The notes beneath the pieces were generated by a model, which saw only the letters and a list, made by a program, of their open reading frames with translations, did no database searches and had not been told where the DNA came from. A stretch of 14,534 bases of DNA, taken from assembly GCA_046757025.1 (NCBI GenBank), contig JBHHXN010000135.1, positions 1 to 14,534 on the forward strand. The letters are read 5' to 3'. A program made the position numbers and the translations under genes. Of this stretch, positions 6,906 to 12,663 are shown piece after piece (the stretch's first letter is position 1; every line of letters begins with the position of its first letter). The stretch comes from a bacterium. GTDB lineage: Bacteria > Zhuqueibacterota > Zhuqueibacteria > Oceanimicrobiales > Oceanimicrobiaceae.

Positions 6906-6984
6906 GAACTAATAATGAGTAATTTTGAGTGAGAAATAATAAGGATAGATTAGTGGTTTCAAATTTCAGGTGCTATTAGAATTG

Positions 6985-7068
6985 TGCCGGGGGAGGGACT
7001 CGAACCCTCACGGACCGAGGTCCACTGGATTTTGAGTCCAGCGCGTCTGCCAGTTTCACCACCCCGGC
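6985..7068 (-). tRNA. tRNA-Leu(CAA)
   Basis: GCCGGGG acceptor, anticodon arm CTGGA-CT CAA AA-TCCAG, long variable arm, GGTTCGAGTCC T arm. Confidence 0.96.
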
Positions 7069-7120
7069 TATTCAAAAATTTGACTTCCTATCCCCCCCAT
7101 GAAAAATTTTGCAACCGCGG

Positions 7121-7207
7121 TGCCGAGGGCCGGACTCGAACCGGCACGGAGATAAATCTCCGAGGGATTTTAAGTCCCTTGTGTCTACCAAATTCCACCA
7201 CCCCGGC
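7121..7207 (-). tRNA. tRNA-Leu(TAA)
   Basis: Anticodon arm AGGGA-CT TAA AA-TCCCT, variable arm CGGAGAT-TT-ATCTCCG, GGTTCGAGTCC. Confidence 0.96.
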
Positions 7208-7238
7208 GCATGATTTGGCTTTTTGCCAATTAACTGAG

Positions 7239-7311
7239 AGGCGGCGATCGGATTCGAACCGATGAATAGAGGTTTTGCAGACCTCTGCCTTGGCCACTTG
7301 GCTACGCCGCC
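7239..7311 (-). tRNA. tRNA-Cys(GCA)
   Basis: GGCGGCG/CGCCGCC acceptor, U73 discriminator, GAGGT-CT GCA AA-ACCTC. Confidence 0.96.
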
Positions 7312-7317
7312 TTAGGC

Positions 7318-7355
7318 AAAAAAAGATCAGAGCCTTGCAGTGAAAACCCTGATCT
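7318..7355 (-). terminator. terminator-like hairpin in the tRNA-Gly/tRNA-Cys spacer
   Basis: Minus strand AGATCAGGGTTTT-CACTGC-AAGGCTCTGATCT (13 bp with 3 G-U pairs) followed by a T run. Confidence 0.55.
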
Positions 7356-7364
7356 AAATAGTTG

Positions 7365-7437
7365 AGCGGGAGACGGGATTCGAACCCGCGACCCTCACCT
7401 TGGCAAGGTGATGCTCTACCAGCTGAGCCACTCCCGC
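7365..7437 (-). tRNA. tRNA-Gly(GCC)
   Basis: GCGGGAG/CTCCCGC acceptor, U73, CACCT-T GCC A-AGGTG anticodon arm, GGTTCGAATCC. Confidence 0.96.
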
Positions 7438-7455
7438 AACGCTCTAAACGTGCAA

Positions 7456-7484
7456 AATATACCAAATAATTTAAAAGTATGCAA
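7456..7484 (-). promoter_or_regulatory. sigma-70-type promoter of the tRNA cluster
   Basis: TTGCAT-N17-TATATT, 18 nt upstream of tRNA-Gly. Confidence 0.7.
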
Positions 7485-7505
7485 GCAATTTTTCAGAAAA
7501 TATGG

Positions 7506-7643
7506 TTATTCTTCAGGCGGCTCACTCATCCGATCCAAGATTTTACGTCTTCTATTACGTACGGCTTTGTACAGAGTTTTGTTCTTTCTGCCAAACCAGA
7601 ATGCGATGAAAATTAACAATGAAATGATTGCAATTTTTATCAT
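7506..7643 (-). CDS. 45-aa single-pass membrane microprotein (not in the ORF track)
   Basis: Hand translation: MIKIAIISLLIFIAFWFGRKNKTLYKAVRNRRRKILDRMSEPPEE*; hydrophobic N-terminus followed by a basic tail. Confidence 0.6.
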   Translation of the reverse strand: MIKIAIISLLIFIAFWFGRKNKTLYKAVRNRRRKILDRMSEPPEE

Positions 7644-7773
7644 TTGCGAGTATAGTTATATTAAGATTTGATTAAATTAAAATTTTTCTCTTTCAAGATC
7701 AAGAAAAAATTATTATATTAAGTGACTATCCTCTAAGCTTTTATAACTTCAAAGTTCTCTCGGAGAATTGATT

Positions 7774-7953
7774 ATGGAAACCATTGATGTGAAAGAATTG
7801 ATTATTACTTGTGAAGCCTGTGGAAATGTAAAAAAGTTTACTGTGAAAGATGAGCAAGACTCTCAACTAATATTTAATGAATATTCCTGTGAAAATAATT
7901 GTGGAAGAAATCTCTACAGCTTTATAACAGTAGGTACACTTAAAAGAGATTGA
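7774..7953 (+). CDS. 59-aa small protein with four Cys (CxxC...CxxxC), putative metal-binding
   Basis: GGAGA RBS 7 nt before ATG 7774; CEACG and CENNCG. Confidence 0.72.
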   Translation: METIDVKELIITCEACGNVKKFTVKDEQDSQLIFNEYSCENNCGRNLYSFITVGTLKRD

Positions 7954-8184
7954 AAATAACATTTGTTAAAGCACAAGCCAATATGCTTAAATTCTAAAAG
8001 TTAGGAATTAAAAAATCAATCCCCAAACTAGAATCAGCCTATTTCTTTTCAATTGCAACAGTTATTAGTTTGGGTTAGCATATTCAGTTCCCCTGAATGC
8101 CATTTTCAGAATCCTATTTTTGACTTTCCTGTAGAATATAGTTGATATTACTTTTTAAAGACAGTTTGGAAGAAAGTTTGATAG

Positions 8185-8224
8185 AAAAACGAAAGCCCAA
8201 CTTAAGAATAAGTTGGGCTTTTTT
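8185..8224. terminator. bidirectional intrinsic terminator downstream of tRNA-Ala
   Basis: AAAGCCCAACTTA-AGAA-TAAGTTGGGCTTT perfect stem flanked by A and T runs. Confidence 0.88.
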
Positions 8225-8225
8225 G

Positions 8226-8299
8226 TGGAGCCGATGGGGATCGAACCCACGACCTCATGACTGCCAGTCATGCGCTCTCCCAAACTGAGCTACGGCCCC
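8226..8299 (-). tRNA. tRNA-Ala(GGC)
   Basis: GGGGCCG/CGGCTCC acceptor with G3:U70, CATGA-CT GGC AG-TCATG. Confidence 0.96.
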
Positions 8300-8340: not shown

Positions 8341-8502
8341 TCACTTTTTCCAGTCAAACTCTTTGAGAAGCTTTTCCGCGATCTTTTCCGTTATCGCTTG
8401 AGTATGATAAAATCCATTCCAGAAGCGCTTGCGGATGATATCTAACTTTTTTTCCTTTTCGGATTTGACTATGTTAGTTAGTTCTCTAGTGATTTTAAAC
8501 AC
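8341..8502 (-). CDS. short FlgM-like (anti-sigma-28 C-terminal domain) protein, ~53 aa (not in the ORF track)
   Basis: Hand translation from GTG 8502: MFKITRELTNIVKSEKEKKLDIIRKRFWNGFYHTQAITEKIAEKLLKEFDWKK*. Resembles the FlgM pattern (R/K)xxKVxxIKxxIxxGxY...xxIAxKLL. Start is uncertain. Confidence 0.62.
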   Translation of the reverse strand: MFKITRELTNIVKSEKEKKLDIIRKRFWNGFYHTQAITEKIAEKLLKEFDWKK

Positions 8503-8852
8503 TCCCCTTTCATTTGACCAAAAGTCTTCTTTACAACACGCAATATAAAATTGACCGTGTGTAAAATTTCCTCAATGTTAAATTTCACTTTGGTGCGTGT
8601 TTCTTCAGGGATGTTACCTTTAAATTTACACCAACTTTTCTTAAAGTCAAGTATTTTTTTATGTTGGCCGTTAATTCTTTCTAATAATTTCAATTTTTCA
8701 TTATTTGTTTGCAGAAAATGAGCGAAATCATCCGCTTGCAATAATTTCGATTGACTGATAAAGAGGTTTTTTATGGCAGCCAAGGTGTGGGATTGTCTTT
8801 CCAATTCCACTACAACGATTTTGAGAAATGCCATTTCTAAACAAGAATTCAC
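8478..8852 (-). CDS. helical protein resembling the FlgN flagellar export chaperone
   Basis: Pattern LERQ...L..L...Q.KLL..DD...F...N.EK..LL..I resembles the FlgN N-terminal helices; ~120 aa; adjacent FlgM-like ORF; start GTG 8852 or ATG 8834. Confidence 0.5.
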   Translation of the reverse strand: MNSCLEMAFLKIVVVELERQSHTLAAIKNLFISQSKLLQADDFAHFLQTNNEKLKLLERINGQHKKILDFKKSWCKFKGNIPEETRTKVKFNIEEILHTVNFILRVVKKTFGQMKGECLKSLEN

Positions 8853-9008: not shown

Positions 9009-12000
9009 TTAACAAATTACATCAAAATTGCCGGACAGCACGCGATCCAGATTGCCGGTACGCCAGAGCCGAACACTGTCCCGCACCAATGGGGAAGGCG
9101 CTTCCCGGTAGCGCCGGACGATGGCTAGTTTTTGATCTTTCATTTCAGAAAAAATGCGCAGAGCGTCGGCGCGATGAGCCGCTGAATCCGGCCCAAACGG
9201 CTCTTCTGGTTGAGGCGCAATTTGCACTCGCACTTTACATCGTACAAATCCGCGACCGTTGCCGGGAATCTCCAGTACATGCAATCCTGCTTCGGCTTCC
9301 AGGATCGTAAAAGCGGCAAAACCGCTAACTGAAAGCAGGAGTCGATAAGGTTGTTTTTTTGCGCCACCGGTTTCTTCCAACACAATCAAGTGCATCTTTC
9401 TGATTTCTGCCCATTGTCGATACATGACACCCAACTGTTTAGCGAATTGATTGGTTTGCACTATCTTCTTACCCGATTCCTTACTGGCGTTGATCAATAA
9501 AAAGGCATCGCGGGGGCGACCTTGTTCCAGGCCCGCACAAGCCGCGTCGATCAAATAGATTTGCTGGGCCAAGCGCTGTAAAATGTTTTTCGAGTAACGG
9601 GTTCTATCGCCGCGGTTGGAACCAACAATTCGATTTAGCAACGATGCCGCTGTGCTGAGTCCGGTCTCGATTCGGTCCATGTACTCCGCCAAACCCAGAA
9701 TCGCGAACCGCTGTGGTGAATTCCAGAAGTCGGAATTGGCGGTCTGGACCAGCGCAGATTGTTTTTGGTTCTGCCATTCATCGCTTTCCACCTGCGATTT
9801 AAGACGCTTATACTGACCTTGAAGAAATTCGACTTCTCCTGCGGTGCCGTGTGTGTCGAGTATCAACTTTTCAACACGAAAATCTTGTTCGGAAGGCATC
9901 GTTGCATTTTCTTCCGGTTCCACATCTGTTTCCAGCATTTCCTCCGGAGCATCGGGATCGATAAATTCCACCTTAATTTGCTGACCTTCGCTGCGCACAA
10001 AAAGAAATTGATCGCCTTCTGGAAATTGATGATTGACAATGGTTATGGCCAGCGGCGACAGCAAATAACGTTCGATGGCGCGTTTAAGCGGTCTGGCGCC
10101 GAGGTCGTAAGTGAATCCTTTTTTCAATAAAAAGTCAATGGCAGAATCGTCCCATTCTACCGCCCAGCTGCGTGTACGTAATCCTCTTCGGGTCAACACT
10201 TGATTCAATTCTTTTTGTAGAATTTGTTTCATCTCAGACGTTCCCAGAGGTTTAAAAACCACTACCCTGTCAAGGCGGTTGATAAATTCTTTCCGGAAGA
10301 CTTTGCTCACGGCGCGCTCCACGCTGCCGGCTGTGAAACCAGCACGGCCGTCTGAGAATCCAATGCTGGTACCCAACGGGATATTCGCCCCCAAATTTGA
10401 CGTCAAAATAATGATGCTGTGGCGGAAATCTGCCGTGTTTCCGCGAGTATCCGTGAGCCGACCATCATCAAACACCTGCAGAAATAAATCCCAAATGTTC
10501 TGGTGCGCTTTTTCAAATTCGTCCAGCAGCAGCACCGAAAAGGGCTGATTGCGAATTAAATTCACCAATGCGGTTTTTTCTGTCGTTTCTTGCTGACTTC
10601 CGAGCAATCTGGAAAGACTTTCGGGAGTCTGGAATTCGCTCATGTCCAACCGAATCATGCGTTGTGGTGAACCAAATAAAAACTCCGTGAGCGCTTTCAC
10701 GATTTCTGTTTTACCCGTACCAGTCGGGCCCACAAATAAAAACACGCCCTGCGGACGCGTGGGATCGGTCAGTCCGGCTTTTATCATGGCCACGCGCTCA
10801 ACCAGACAGTCGATGGCCTCTTTTTGACCGAGCACTCGTTCCTGAAAAAACTCCCGCAGTGCCTGCAAATCCAGCCCTTGGCGGTCATCGAGGATGTTTG
10901 CAGGCAGACCGGTGAGCTGTGTGAGGGTGAGCAGCAGCTCATCCCGAGAAATGGGCTCGTTGGACTTGGTTTCCTGTGATAAACTGCGTCTGTGCGTGAG
11001 CTTCAGTAATTGCAGCAAGTTTCCCGGCAGCGCTCGGTCACCCAGATACTGTGTGGTCAATTGCACCGCTTCCGAAAGCGTTTGCTCGGAAATACAGGGC
11101 GCTCCGTCTGGAAGTTTGAAATTGACCAACCACTCTCTGGCCACCCCCGTCGCTTCCTGATTGCTCAATGGGTTGATGCGGTAGGTTTCGATGATGGACG
11201 TTAACCGCGGTTTCATCAATAACAATTGTTCAAAACTCAGGGGCCGGGTTTCACCGATGATGGTGATTTCCCCGTTTTCCACATAAGGCAGAATGTAATC
11301 CAGCACACCAGTTGGGCTGTATCGGTTGCGTCCAGCCCAGGCTAATTCATGAATATCCGGCACAATCCAAAGCACTTTGCGATCGCCGGAGATGTTTCTC
11401 ACCAATTGCAGCAGCCGCTCTTCCAACTGCCCGATATAAACTCGACCGGACAACAAATCCACTCCACCCGCTTCGAAAATCAGCCATCCATGCAGACGCA
11501 TGCGCTCGGCTAACACCCGCAAAGTAGCGGTTTTGCCCACGCCGGATTCGCCGACTAAGATACCCGAGCGAGGAGGTTGTTTCATGAGAGCTGCTTCCAG
11601 TGCATCCACGTGCGCCTGCAAATAATCGTGAGGGATGATCCGATTTTTTTCAGACGTTTCATTCCCATCCCAAATTCGGCCGAAAGTTTTTAAAAAGTCG
11701 ATATTTACATGCGTGAGGCGCCACTGCTGCAATTCTGCCATCAAACCAGGGCACAGTTTTTTCCCGCCAAGTTTGTCCAGCAGCTTTTCAAGATTATTCA
11801 CTTTCGCAGCGGTAAAATTATTCAACGAGGCACCAAAAGTCGGCGTTTCCCCCTCTTCCTGCCGGTCCGTGATGAATTCTTTTAAGATTGCAATCATTTC
11901 GCTGTCTACCCACCACTCGTCTTCGATGTTGCCGATGTGTGCCAGTAACGCTCCCACAACGGGTTCGGCAATGCGCTCAGCCAGCACCCGAAAAGCAAAG

Positions 12001-12392
12001 TAGCGGGTCCAGTAATTGCTTATGTTGATGGAGGAAAGTATCGGGGTCAGAATTTCGTCCCCATTTTTGCGGCGGGCCAGAGCAGCCAGAGCCATCCAGG
12101 CTACATAGGAATTCTCACCGGTGTAGTAGGACAGCAGTTCTTGCGTCGAATAATTCAGGCTGTTGAAATGGTCAATCCCTTGCTTAAAAGCAGGAAGGTG
12201 GAGTAGGTCCCGTGGATGTGCCGCTTCTCCACTTTCATTTTTAAGTTGCTCGGCGATGGCGTACAGATCGGTGGGATTCTTTTCAACGGGATATTTTTCC
12301 TGATTGAACCGTTCCCGGATGATAGAAAATATGAAATAGGCCACACCACCGATTATCAATACGATGAAGAAGTCCATGAGTATGAGCGACAC
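9009..12392 (-). CDS. membrane-anchored ClpA/C-like double AAA+ ATPase fused to an RF2-like (PCRF) release factor module lacking GGQ
   Basis: N-terminal hydrophobic helix; GESGVGKT; GPTGTGKT, RLDMSEF, LLLDEFEKAH, GRLTD, TSNLG, IGF, EFINRLD, GARPLKR; C-terminal DFWN.P, MYRQWAE, LEAEAGLH, IVRRY...P..LVRD.....TGN...VL.G.FD. Start may be ATG 12377, since AGGAGG overlaps the GTG at 12392. Confidence 0.88.
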   Translation of the reverse strand: MSLILMDFFIVLIIGGVAYFIFSIIRERFNQEKYPVEKNPTDLYAIAEQLKNESGEAAHPRDLLHLPAFKQGIDHFNSLNYSTQELLSYYTGENSYVAWMALAALARRKNGDEILTPILSSINISNYWTRYFAFRVLAERIAEPVVGALLAHIGNIEDEWWVDSEMIAILKEFITDRQEEGETPTFGASLNNFTAAKVNNLEKLLDKLGGKKLCPGLMAELQQWRLTHVNIDFLKTFGRIWDGNETSEKNRIIPHDYLQAHVDALEAALMKQPPRSGILVGESGVGKTATLRVLAERMRLHGWLIFEAGGVDLLSGRVYIGQLEERLLQLVRNISGDRKVLWIVPDIHELAWAGRNRYSPTGVLDYILPYVENGEITIIGETRPLSFEQLLLMKPRLTSIIETYRINPLSNQEATGVAREWLVNFKLPDGAPCISEQTLSEAVQLTTQYLGDRALPGNLLQLLKLTHRRSLSQETKSNEPISRDELLLTLTQLTGLPANILDDRQGLDLQALREFFQERVLGQKEAIDCLVERVAMIKAGLTDPTRPQGVFLFVGPTGTGKTEIVKALTEFLFGSPQRMIRLDMSEFQTPESLSRLLGSQQETTEKTALVNLIRNQPFSVLLLDEFEKAHQNIWDLFLQVFDDGRLTDTRGNTADFRHSIIILTSNLGANIPLGTSIGFSDGRAGFTAGSVERAVSKVFRKEFINRLDRVVVFKPLGTSEMKQILQKELNQVLTRRGLRTRSWAVEWDDSAIDFLLKKGFTYDLGARPLKRAIERYLLSPLAITIVNHQFPEGDQFLFVRSEGQQIKVEFIDPDAPEEMLETDVEPEENATMPSEQDFRVEKLILDTHGTAGEVEFLQGQYKRLKSQVESDEWQNQKQSALVQTANSDFWNSPQRFAILGLAEYMDRIETGLSTAASLLNRIVGSNRGDRTRYSKNILQRLAQQIYLIDAACAGLEQGRPRDAFLLINASKESGKKIVQTNQFAKQLGVMYRQWAEIRKMHLIVLEETGGAKKQPYRLLLSVSGFAAFTILEAEAGLHVLEIPGNGRGFVRCKVRVQIAPQPEEPFGPDSAAHRADALRIFSEMKDQKLAIVRRYREAPSPLVRDSVRLWRTGNLDRVLSGNFDVIC

Positions 12393-12428
12393 CTCCTGTT
12401 TTAAAACTCGATGAGAACCGTTCTTGAG

Positions 12429-12479
12429 ATGCAGGATGAAAGGAATTGTGTTTTAGAAATGCGAGATGTAAAGGAATTG
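12429..12479. repeat. imperfect ~20-bp direct repeat in the leader of the Clp-RF gene
   Basis: atgcaggatg-aaaggaattg (12429-12448) and atgcgagatgtaaaggaattg (12459-12479). Confidence 0.6.
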
Positions 12480-12511: not shown

Positions 12512-12534
12512 ACAATTTGTGAATTTAAGCAAAT

Positions 12535-12565
12535 AAAAAAGCTCCCAGAATACGAGAGCCTTTTT
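12535..12565 (-). terminator. intrinsic terminator after tRNA-Arg
   Basis: Minus strand GGCTCTC-GTATTCT-GGGAGCT followed by TTTTTATTT; A run on the other side. Confidence 0.75.
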
Positions 12566-12589
12566 ACACCCCTATTAAGATATTTTTAG

Positions 12590-12653
<64 letters not shown>

Positions 12654-12663
<10 letters not shown>

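Follow-up and report, generated by a model that had tools for sequence, protein, structure and literature searches.

The longest open reading frame (ORF) of a 14,534-nt stretch of an Oceanimicrobiaceae (Zhuqueibacterota) assembly (GCA_046757025.1, contig JBHHXN010000135.1; hereafter the window) lies on the minus strand from 12392 to 9009, between a tRNA-Arg(CCG) gene and an ORF of 124 amino acids (aa), with housekeeping genes around. It is predicted to encode a membrane-anchored Clp-type ATPase ending in an arm derived from release factor 2 (RF2), which we refer to as the Clp-RF2 fusion. The initial annotation had described it as a single uninterrupted ORF; it is indeed open over 1127 codons, and every motif quoted there was found in its place. 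Translation probably starts at the ATG at 12377 rather than at the GTG at 12392, because the GTG overlaps an AGGAGG sequence (12397-12392) and a database record begins at the same methionine; residue numbers throughout follow the 1127-residue count from the GTG.

An Hsp100/Clp ATPase had been proposed for the central part of the protein. The pair of AAA+ domains stands, but the motor is not an ordinary one, as the catalytic Walker B and arginine finger of the first domain (D1) and the GYVG pore loop of the second (D2) have been lost and the IGF loop has been kept. Motor motifs were compared with the genome's own ClpC and counted in 110 close full-length homologues (what is left of 120 listed once the self record and shorter entries are removed) and in 88 diverse homologues (38-50% identity; minimum length 1040 aa); paired counts are given in this order. 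Walker A motifs lie at aa 281 and 555, and their lysines are retained in 110/110 and 82/88 homologues for D1 and in 110/110 and 88/88 for D2. The Walker B motif of D1 has proline in place of aspartate (P345 in 110/110; DE in 0/88), and the ERR/RRF arginine finger is absent from both sets (0/110, 0/88). D1 is predicted to be hydrolysis-dead; some residual activity is conceivable because an arginine stands one position before the finger site in 96/110 homologues (threonine in the window protein) and a conserved Glu381 lies beside sensor 1 (110/110, 69/88). The pore-1 aromatic of D1 is kept (Y319 here; tyrosine or phenylalanine in 110/110 and 79/88). A conserved WAGRHxY loop at aa 352-360 (about 11300-11340, minus strand) was also seen at the pore-2 position, following the degenerate Walker B.

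D2 matches PF07724 (E 2e-43) and PF10431 (E 9e-16), and its catalytic residues D624, E625, N666, R706 and R767 are each present in 110/110 close and 86-88 of the 88 diverse homologues. A GYVG-like pore loop, present in the genome's own ClpC and ClpB, is found in none of the homologues (0/110, 0/88), and the IGF/IGL loop is kept in 110/110 and 86/88. The two Walker A motifs are 274 residues apart (family medians 277 and 272), as against 402 in the ClpB and 337 in the ClpC of the same genome, which indicates that there is no middle domain. The full-length TIGR02639 score is 312.9 bits against a cut-off of 993.15. The small domain of D2 (aa 716-812; 9957-10250, minus strand) is unusually conserved (0.71) and bears two family-specific motifs, RRGLRxRxW and PxGDQFLF; the arm, or RNA, could dock there.

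The fusion thus resembles ClpA and ClpC in its two stacked AAA+ domains, full D2 catalytic set, D1 pore aromatic and IGF loop, and resembles ClpA in having no middle domain. It differs from both in lacking the D1 Walker B, the D1 arginine finger and the D2 GYVG, and in carrying a membrane anchor, a HEAT-like N-domain and an RF2-derived C-terminal arm, while the absence of a coiled-coil middle domain and the presence of the IGF loop set it apart from ClpB/Hsp104. Reading it as a ClpP partner is well grounded in sequence, and toward ClpP it probably works like ClpA.

The C-terminal region had been read as a GGQ-less RF2-like module, and profile searches agree: the last 313 aa match the PCRF domain PF03462 (E 1.3e-5, 25.5 bits, cut-off 24) and prfB TIGR00020 (E 1.1e-7), RF-1 PF00472 is not listed for them at E<=1, and the tail matches RF2 of the PDB by sequence at E 4e-5. 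RF2-type motifs were located in succession at 888 (DFWNSP), 962 (DAFLLINA), 991 (YRQWAE), 1032 (EAEAGLH), 1054 (VRVQIAP), 1091 (IVRRYR) and 1112 (TGNLDRV). The structural comparison suggested with the initial annotation points the same way. An AlphaFold model of aa 845-1127, built from 91 sequences (predicted local distance difference test, pLDDT, 95; predicted template modelling score 0.91), has 52 Foldseek matches at E<=0.001, and all rows shown are RF2, RF1 or mitochondrial release factors (RFs); the best is RF2 at E 3.1e-14, with identity to RF2 in structure alignments of about 16-18%. VIA gave Z 17.8 against Bacillus subtilis RF2 (254 residues aligned, root-mean-square deviation (rmsd) 8.9) and Z 17.5 against RF1 (165 aligned, rmsd 3.3), followed by a designed helical bundle (11.5) and by PrfH (11.4, with 130 aligned and rmsd 3.4, and 10.3). 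With RF sets drawn entirely from the window's phylum, hhalign aligned the arm profile of the 88 diverse members end to end with 28 RF2 sequences (99.3%, E 2e-19) and with 20 RF1 sequences (98.0%, E 1.3e-12); domains 1 and 4 taken alone matched RF2 weakly (E 5e-4 and 2e-4) and RF1 more weakly still (0.08 and 0.02). Judged by profile and model, the arm is closer to RF2 than to RF1, and is an RF2 derivative from which domain 3 has been removed.

The arm shares with RF2 domains 1, 2 and 4 in order, together with the FW, MYxxW, ExGxH, RxY, VxD and GxxD motifs; it differs in lacking the GGQ domain, SPF, the GAGG helix tip and RRHTS, and in being part of an accessory protein fused to an ATPase. From P1060 to I1091 there are 30 residues, where RF2 has 97 that bear the GGQ. 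GGQ occurs in 0/110 close homologues, and 2/88 diverse ones carry it incidentally in domain 2 loops; SPF occurs in 0/110 and 0/88, a PxT-like motif in 0/110 and 5/88, and the GAGG positions are kept in at most 30% of the family. The GAGG helix tip, the HRLVR arginines, SPF and RRHTS are what we take to be the codon-reading elements. SPF is described as such in bioRxiv 2021.09.22.461353. Because the GGQ domain and the codon-reading residues are gone, the arm, to judge from its sequence, is unable to read a stop codon or to release a peptide. A conserved basic surface is nonetheless present, one peculiar to the arm: domain 4 is more conserved (0.76) than D2 (0.70) or the N-domain (0.37), and its net charge is +2.7 compared with -2.4 in RF2, with new arginines.

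Two RF2 relatives offer partial parallels. In PrfH, RF2-like domains 2 and 4 have been turned from codon reading to ribosomal RNA binding (bioRxiv 2021.09.22.461353), and the arm similarly has RF2-derived domains 2 and 4 retooled away from codon reading; PrfH, however, keeps the GGQ and lacks domain 1, the opposite of the arm. PrfB3 is, like the arm, an RF2 paralogue without the SPF and GGQ motifs, but it is a stand-alone chloroplast protein acting on petB messenger RNA (mRNA), has no ATPase, and 82% of the members of its cluster have an RF-1 domain match, unlike the Clp-RF2 family. By its motifs and scores (D1 catalysis, GYVG and the full-length score in the case of ClpA/ClpC), the fusion falls outside ClpA/ClpC, ClpB, RF2, PrfH and PrfB3 alike.

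At the N-terminus, the membrane-spanning helix noted in the initial annotation is again predicted, with a 19-residue hydropathy peak of 2.57; a comparable helix (19-residue Kyte-Doolittle hydropathy, KD19, >=1.6) is found in 95/110 close and 69/88 diverse homologues. Lysine and arginine are more numerous after the helix than before it in 94/95 and 65/69 of these helix-bearing proteins, and the positive-inside rule predicts an N-out, C-in orientation. The helical region said to follow it is confirmed in the model, where it forms the least conserved folded domain of the protein (0.37). This N-domain matches HEAT_2 below cut-off (E 6e-4) and has no Foldseek match at E<=0.001, the best VIA hit being a HEAT protein (Z 8.6) and the atlas scores being at most 0.76. 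No Clp N-domain appears among its fold-match lists, and the significant BLASTP alignment to the genome's ClpC begins only at aa 234. The features of the locus are collected in Table 1.

Table 1. Features of the Clp-RF2 gene and its upstream region in the window (residues counted from the GTG at 12392)
Feature	Residues	Position	Strand	Remarks
Hairpin with U-run after tRNA-Arg(CCG)		12534..12565	-	-20.6 kcal/mol, z -5.5
Sigma-70-like site		12445..12472	-	9/12 matches; not above chance
Shine-Dalgarno-like AGGAGG		12392..12397	-	14 nt before the ATG; overlaps the GTG
Whole Clp-RF2 gene		9009..12377	-	Probable ATG start at 12377; 1122 aa
Signal-anchor helix	8-25	12318..12371	-	Predicted; single; basic residues after it
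All-helical HEAT-like N-domain	36-245	11658..12287	-	Model pLDDT 94; 13 helices
AAA+ D1	246-495	10908..11657	-	Walker A GESGVGKT kept; Walker B is VPD, not IDE; no ERR finger
AAA+ D2	496-812	9957..10907	-	Walker A, Walker B, sensor 1, arginine finger and sensor 2 intact
D2 pore-1 loop	598-608	10569..10601	-	Without GYVG; shorter, variable
IGF loop	677-679	10356..10364	-	Predicted ClpP-docking motif; in register with GAGIGF of the genome's ClpC
Acidic variable linker	813-844	9861..9956	-	Conservation 0.30
RF2-like domain 1	845-958	9519..9860	-	Helical bundle with FW motif
RF2-like domain 2 (PCRF)	959-1062	9207..9518	-	GAGG helix tip, HRLVR arginines, SPF and RRHTS lost
Stub	1063-1088	9129..9206	-	Loop and one helix replacing the GGQ domain
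RF2-like domain 4	1089-1127	9012..9128	-	Most conserved region; family-specific arginines

The fusion belongs to a sizeable family, with 707 homologous proteins at E<=0.001 (619-1973 aa) and 410 clusters (50% identity) at E<=1e-30. Database labels of its members include ClpC, PCRF domain-containing protein and, as had been anticipated, AAA family ATPase. In a genome scan, 158 of 184 pattern hits were confirmed; the record titles of the 80 loci shown are mostly of Acidobacteriota, with Calditrichia, Gemmatimonadota, Planctomycetota, Rokubacteria, Deltaproteobacteria and Acidimicrobiia as the other groups. Distribution is patchy, both in the window's phylum (4/167 genomes and one gene cut at a contig end) and in three further samples (3/101, 2/101 and 2/101 genomes, seeds included). 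A search with the tail gave 372 matches, 277 with D2 upstream, 93 that start within 75 aa of the tail and 2 with another N-terminus; the short stand-alone matches, mostly on contigs of 1-3 kb, look like fragments. No match to the family was found on plasmids and none of 183 viral pattern hits was confirmed; among phages, one unannotated record of 3.5 kb matched (E 1e-3, 54% coverage). A literature search by titles and abstract openings, with subscription journals largely outside its coverage, found no description of the fusion, and in the excerpts of the main text and supplement of the release-factor survey of Burroughs and Aravind 2019 (PMC6514570) neither 'clp' nor 'pcrf' occurs. The family is real, conserved and apparently undescribed.

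A wider superfamily of Clp proteins came from a D2 search of 151 genomes, in which 22 loci were examined and 37 Clp proteins found. They comprise solos with RF2-like tails, tail-less solos bearing HEAT repeats, and genes in tandem whose products measure about 1150, 1120 and 790 aa; GYVG is in none of their printed D2 loops. One solo of 987 aa (L171:2203-5163, minus strand) has a tail that lies much nearer to RF2 (PCRF E 2e-19; 30% identity over 203 aa); it keeps GxHRL and IRTY, has no GGQ, and has the look of an arm at an early stage. Three others (L173:2439-5012, L175:2397-5201 and L176:2596-5208) are tail-less, with a GYVG-less D2, a degenerate D1 Walker B and an xGF loop, and the first of them has clear HEAT repeats at its N-terminus; these relatives indicate that an arm need not accompany the remodelled motor. 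The tandem sets (L162-L170 and L181), which have these three sizes or else three long genes, may form heterohexamers. In a quick, midpoint-rooted D2 tree with two canonical outgroup sequences, used only for the one-clade claim, the Clp-RF2 family forms a clade of its own (support 100) separate from these trios, and each gene position of the tandem sets is likewise its own clade. The tail profile of the first trio gene matches RF2 (98.4%, E 7e-15); 70/120 homologues of this gene match an RF2 profile at E<1e-3 (0 with the reversed control), GYVG is present in 0/117 and an IGF-like loop in 100/117. The trios thus share with the fusion a GYVG-less D2, an IGF-like loop and RF2-like tails, and differ in consisting of three adjacent genes without a membrane anchor, in having far more diverged tails and in forming a separate clade.

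By operon structure and lengths, a weak link, this superfamily may extend to three Myxococcus xanthus proteins, whose locus tags we take to be MXAN_4823-4825. All three belong to the ClpA/B family (1149, 1127 and 836 aa) and share about 30% identity with ClpA (PMC11423568), and their operon rises with chloramphenicol (log2 fold change 3.57, 2.67 and 2.61; PMC6617876); nowhere in the excerpts of these two papers are they called RF-fused. No M. xanthus record was among the best 120 of 7999 scored in the trio profile search, and marker searches for close relatives gave none over cut-off in 151, 401 and 31 genomes, the controls being silent too.

How might such a protein work? With the D1 grip, D2 catalysis and the IGF loop kept and the D2 grip lost, the motor is best read as delivering already unfolded chains to ClpP. 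Clp rings dock on ClpP by their IGF loops, and force is passed on by the aromatic residues of the pore loops (PMC7112952). Grip on folded substrates resides in D2 (PMC11570520), and ClpA without all six D2 pore tyrosines degrades unfolded titin-ssrA as fast or faster but does not degrade native titin; D2 of ClpA alone can also power many substrates with D1 hydrolysis off (PMC8666677). By analogy with known Clp biochemistry, the fusion probably forms a hexamer, a double AAA+ ring predicted to be membrane-anchored, and docks on ClpP, where it would pass on only already unfolded chains. On the same analogy, the D1 pore loops would grip the chain and D2 hydrolysis would drive it into ClpP, a division of labour that, somewhat more likely than not, would be enough for unfolded substrates and would fail on stably folded ones. 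Clp rings take in substrate at the N-terminal face and have their C-terminus on the ClpP side, so the D1 entrance would face the membrane, near the exit tunnel of a translocon-bound ribosome, and the arm would lie further out on its flexible linker.

The initial annotation had proposed that the RF-shaped domain targets the ATPase to ribosomes, possibly ones stalled at the membrane, and from its ancestry we infer that it may do so. For a protein with both an RF arm and a membrane anchor, the substrate that asks for the fewest assumptions is the nascent chain on a translocon-bound ribosome: the arm would aim the motor at ribosomes and hence at unfinished chains, its basic domain 4 entering or flanking the A site, with no codon reading and no peptide release. 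Ancestry is the guide to this last step, which we place somewhat short of evenly balanced. Loss of the D1 catalytic motifs and of GYVG, together with retention of IGF, favours the feeding of unfolded chains over forceful ribosome splitting or extraction, both of which had been envisaged. Taken from end to end, an anchored ClpP feeder for unfolded chains, aimed at ribosomes by its RF arm, is our preferred reading, held tentatively. That it amounts to an undescribed bacterial ribosome quality-control machine, in which one membrane-anchored polypeptide locates ribosomes by a disarmed RF2 arm and passes their unfolded nascent chains to ClpP through a ring that no longer has the grip for folded proteins, is a rather doubtful possibility; such a machine could do without a tmRNA tag, an alanine tail and peptide release, and would represent a single branch of the RF-tailed Clp superfamily, heteromeric trios included.

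Several observations weigh against a ribosome-aimed feeder. At positions that are >=93% invariant in domains 2 and 4 of RF2 (with the SPF hairpin aligned at low confidence), the family keeps 11/29 hydrophobic, 6/12 glycine or proline and 2/7 acidic residues, 0/11 polar and 2/14 basic ones; with the RF2-invariant residues mostly lost, little is left of the ancestral contacts to the A site. The trio tails have diverged to near undetectability, which is unexpected for a binder of universal ribosomal RNA. No recurrent translation gene was found among the scanned neighbours (16 of the 45 families that occur in at least three loci), the commonest being peptidases, aconitase and transporters. The genome already has RF1, RF2, an ArfB-like ORF, ClpC with McsA/McsB-like genes, ClpB, tig-clpP-clpX and SmpB, all but ClpP and SmpB being named by motifs; because it holds its own RF1, RF2, rescue and Clp genes, the Clp-RF2 gene is accessory. 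Chloramphenicol raised 625 genes in M. xanthus, the canonical clpC MXAN_4832 included (PMC6617876). The cited ClpA D2-loop mutants had an active D1, unlike the predicted dead D1 of the fusion (PMC8666677), and PrfB3, a dead RF2, binds the 3' untranslated region (UTR) of petB mRNA instead (PMC5897788).

Much of this evidence would suit a protein-binding arm on the same ClpP-docking motor, serving as a latch on the ring or on ClpP, or as a recruiter of a membrane substrate or adaptor, without contacting RNA. The polar and basic residues with which RF2 contacts nucleic acid are mostly gone and the core residues stay, a different tail surface is conserved in each subfamily, some relatives have no tail at all, the highly conserved D2-small domain with its RRGLRxRxW motif is a possible intramolecular partner, and no translation gene recurs among the neighbours scanned. 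On the other hand, the new conserved residues of domain 4 are mainly arginines, giving a net basic surface that suits RNA, and the three RF domains are held as one module in the model; we regard a purely protein-binding arm as possible, if somewhat unlikely.

The same basic domain 4 would also fit an arm that binds RNA off the ribosome (mRNA, tRNA or dropped-off peptidyl-tRNA) and tethers the protease to RNA-linked membrane substrates. PrfB3, having lost SPF and GGQ, is the precedent for this (PMC5897788), and its cluster was the third feature hit for the arm (score 0.87, lead level only); yet most of that cluster keeps the RF-1 domain match that the Clp-RF2 family lacks, and neither an RNA target nor a conserved neighbouring RNA was seen, with tRNA genes in just 4/83 other loci scanned. 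This explanation appears unlikely. Less probable again is an RF2-mimic decoy that catches a toxin, phage protein or antibiotic peptide and feeds the attacker to ClpP or triggers a response. The catalytically dead arm and the patchy distribution typical of conflict genes would be expected of it, but a decoy ought to preserve the surface of RF2, most of which has been replaced here; synteny is stable within lineages, no defence-island neighbours were found among the 16 families scanned, and PADLOC matches are limited to the generic AAA+ part.

A splitter or extractor working at the A site in the manner of Dom34/Pelota, driven by ATP and without a protease, is very improbable. In its favour, Dom34 splits ribosomal subunits apart although this release-factor paralogue has no catalytic activity (PMC6514570), and the D2 of the fusion is a complete ATPase; against this, the force-transmitting D2 pore loop is absent throughout both homologue sets, the ClpP-docking loop is kept in nearly all of them, and the Walker A spacing leaves no room for a ClpB middle domain. 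Dom34/Pelota-ABCE1 and Vms1-Cdc48 also pair a release-factor paralogue with an ATPase in ribosome quality control (PMC6514570), but with an unrelated aeRF1 fold, as separate polypeptides and in archaea and eukaryotes, so that the likeness is one of analogy only. An assembly chimera or chance resemblance, which the low RF2 identity might suggest and which had been named as a way for the initial annotation to fail, is practically negligible given the 707 homologues, the 2/372 tail matches with another N-terminus, the highly significant profile and fold matches, and single contigs that cover the gene end to end without a joint in 2/3 sequencing runs (both may be the source sample; the third covers the ORF in pieces).

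If the preferred reading of a ribosome-aimed ClpP feeder is true, its interest lies in the order of events. Bacterial rescue by trans-translation, ArfA/ArfB or RqcH/RqcP tags or releases the chain first and degrades it later; a protease feeder with its own release-factor-shaped arm would physically couple rescue and degradation, at the membrane. Even without ribosome binding, the fusion would be a natural Clp motor with grip in D1 and ATP hydrolysis in D2, a division so far probed in engineered ClpA, and, with PrfB3, MRPS35 and Dom34 before it, another release factor put to a non-catalytic use. If the homology is confirmed, M. xanthus would provide a genetically tractable, chloramphenicol-induced relative.

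As to transcription, the gene's own promoter claimed in the initial annotation found no support, since six sigma-70-like sites were found where 4.9 +/- 2.1 are expected by chance. The hairpin after tRNA-Arg(CCG), equalled by none of 200 shuffles, is likely a terminator cutting the gene off from folD/tRNA transcription, which suggests that the gene is transcribed separately. A recent horizontal arrival is unsupported, the G+C content of the gene (0.50) and of its third codon positions (0.54) matching those of neighbouring genes. Elsewhere in the genome (94.8% complete), no prfC, the gene for RF3, and no RqcH/NFACT match was found over cut-off.

Across the 80 loci, the commonest neighbour families are M48 peptidase (17/80), aconitase (16/80) and S46 peptidase (14/80). 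A conserved operon was considered and rejected, as only lineage synteny was seen; rtcB is not among the 16 families scanned, and no search was aimed at it. In four loci (L011, L014, L015 and L072) the gene is in pieces near the match at 8001, by lineage decay or assembly frameshifts; the first three have common neighbours and the tail in a separate ORF (299, 527 and 277 aa). Six loci titled 'uncultured Heliomicrobium sp.' (L008, L019, L024, L026, L027 and L037) have a Blastocatellia-like gene order, and their titles are probably misassigned. One protein of 1049 aa (P0041) joins a partial D2 and a full tail to a repetitive unrelated N-terminal half, possibly through misassembly or a frame error. 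Short PCRF-only proteins make up two atlas clusters (241 aa with 57 members, 199 aa with 149) that have no common RF-1 domain; these proteins could be fragments, or else GGQ-less forms that stand alone.

The window also contains six tRNA genes (6984-8299 and 12589-12663, minus strand), namely Leu(CAA), Leu(TAA), Cys, Gly, Ala and Arg(CCG); their adjacency to the Clp-RF2 gene is unconserved. The 124-aa ORF downstream (8478-8852, minus strand) is AT-rich (G+C 0.33) and has a weak FlgN match under cut-off (E 0.016). Between the tRNA genes, an ORF of 61 aa on the plus strand (7768-7953) carries two CxxC-like pairs and has weak zinc-ribbon matches.

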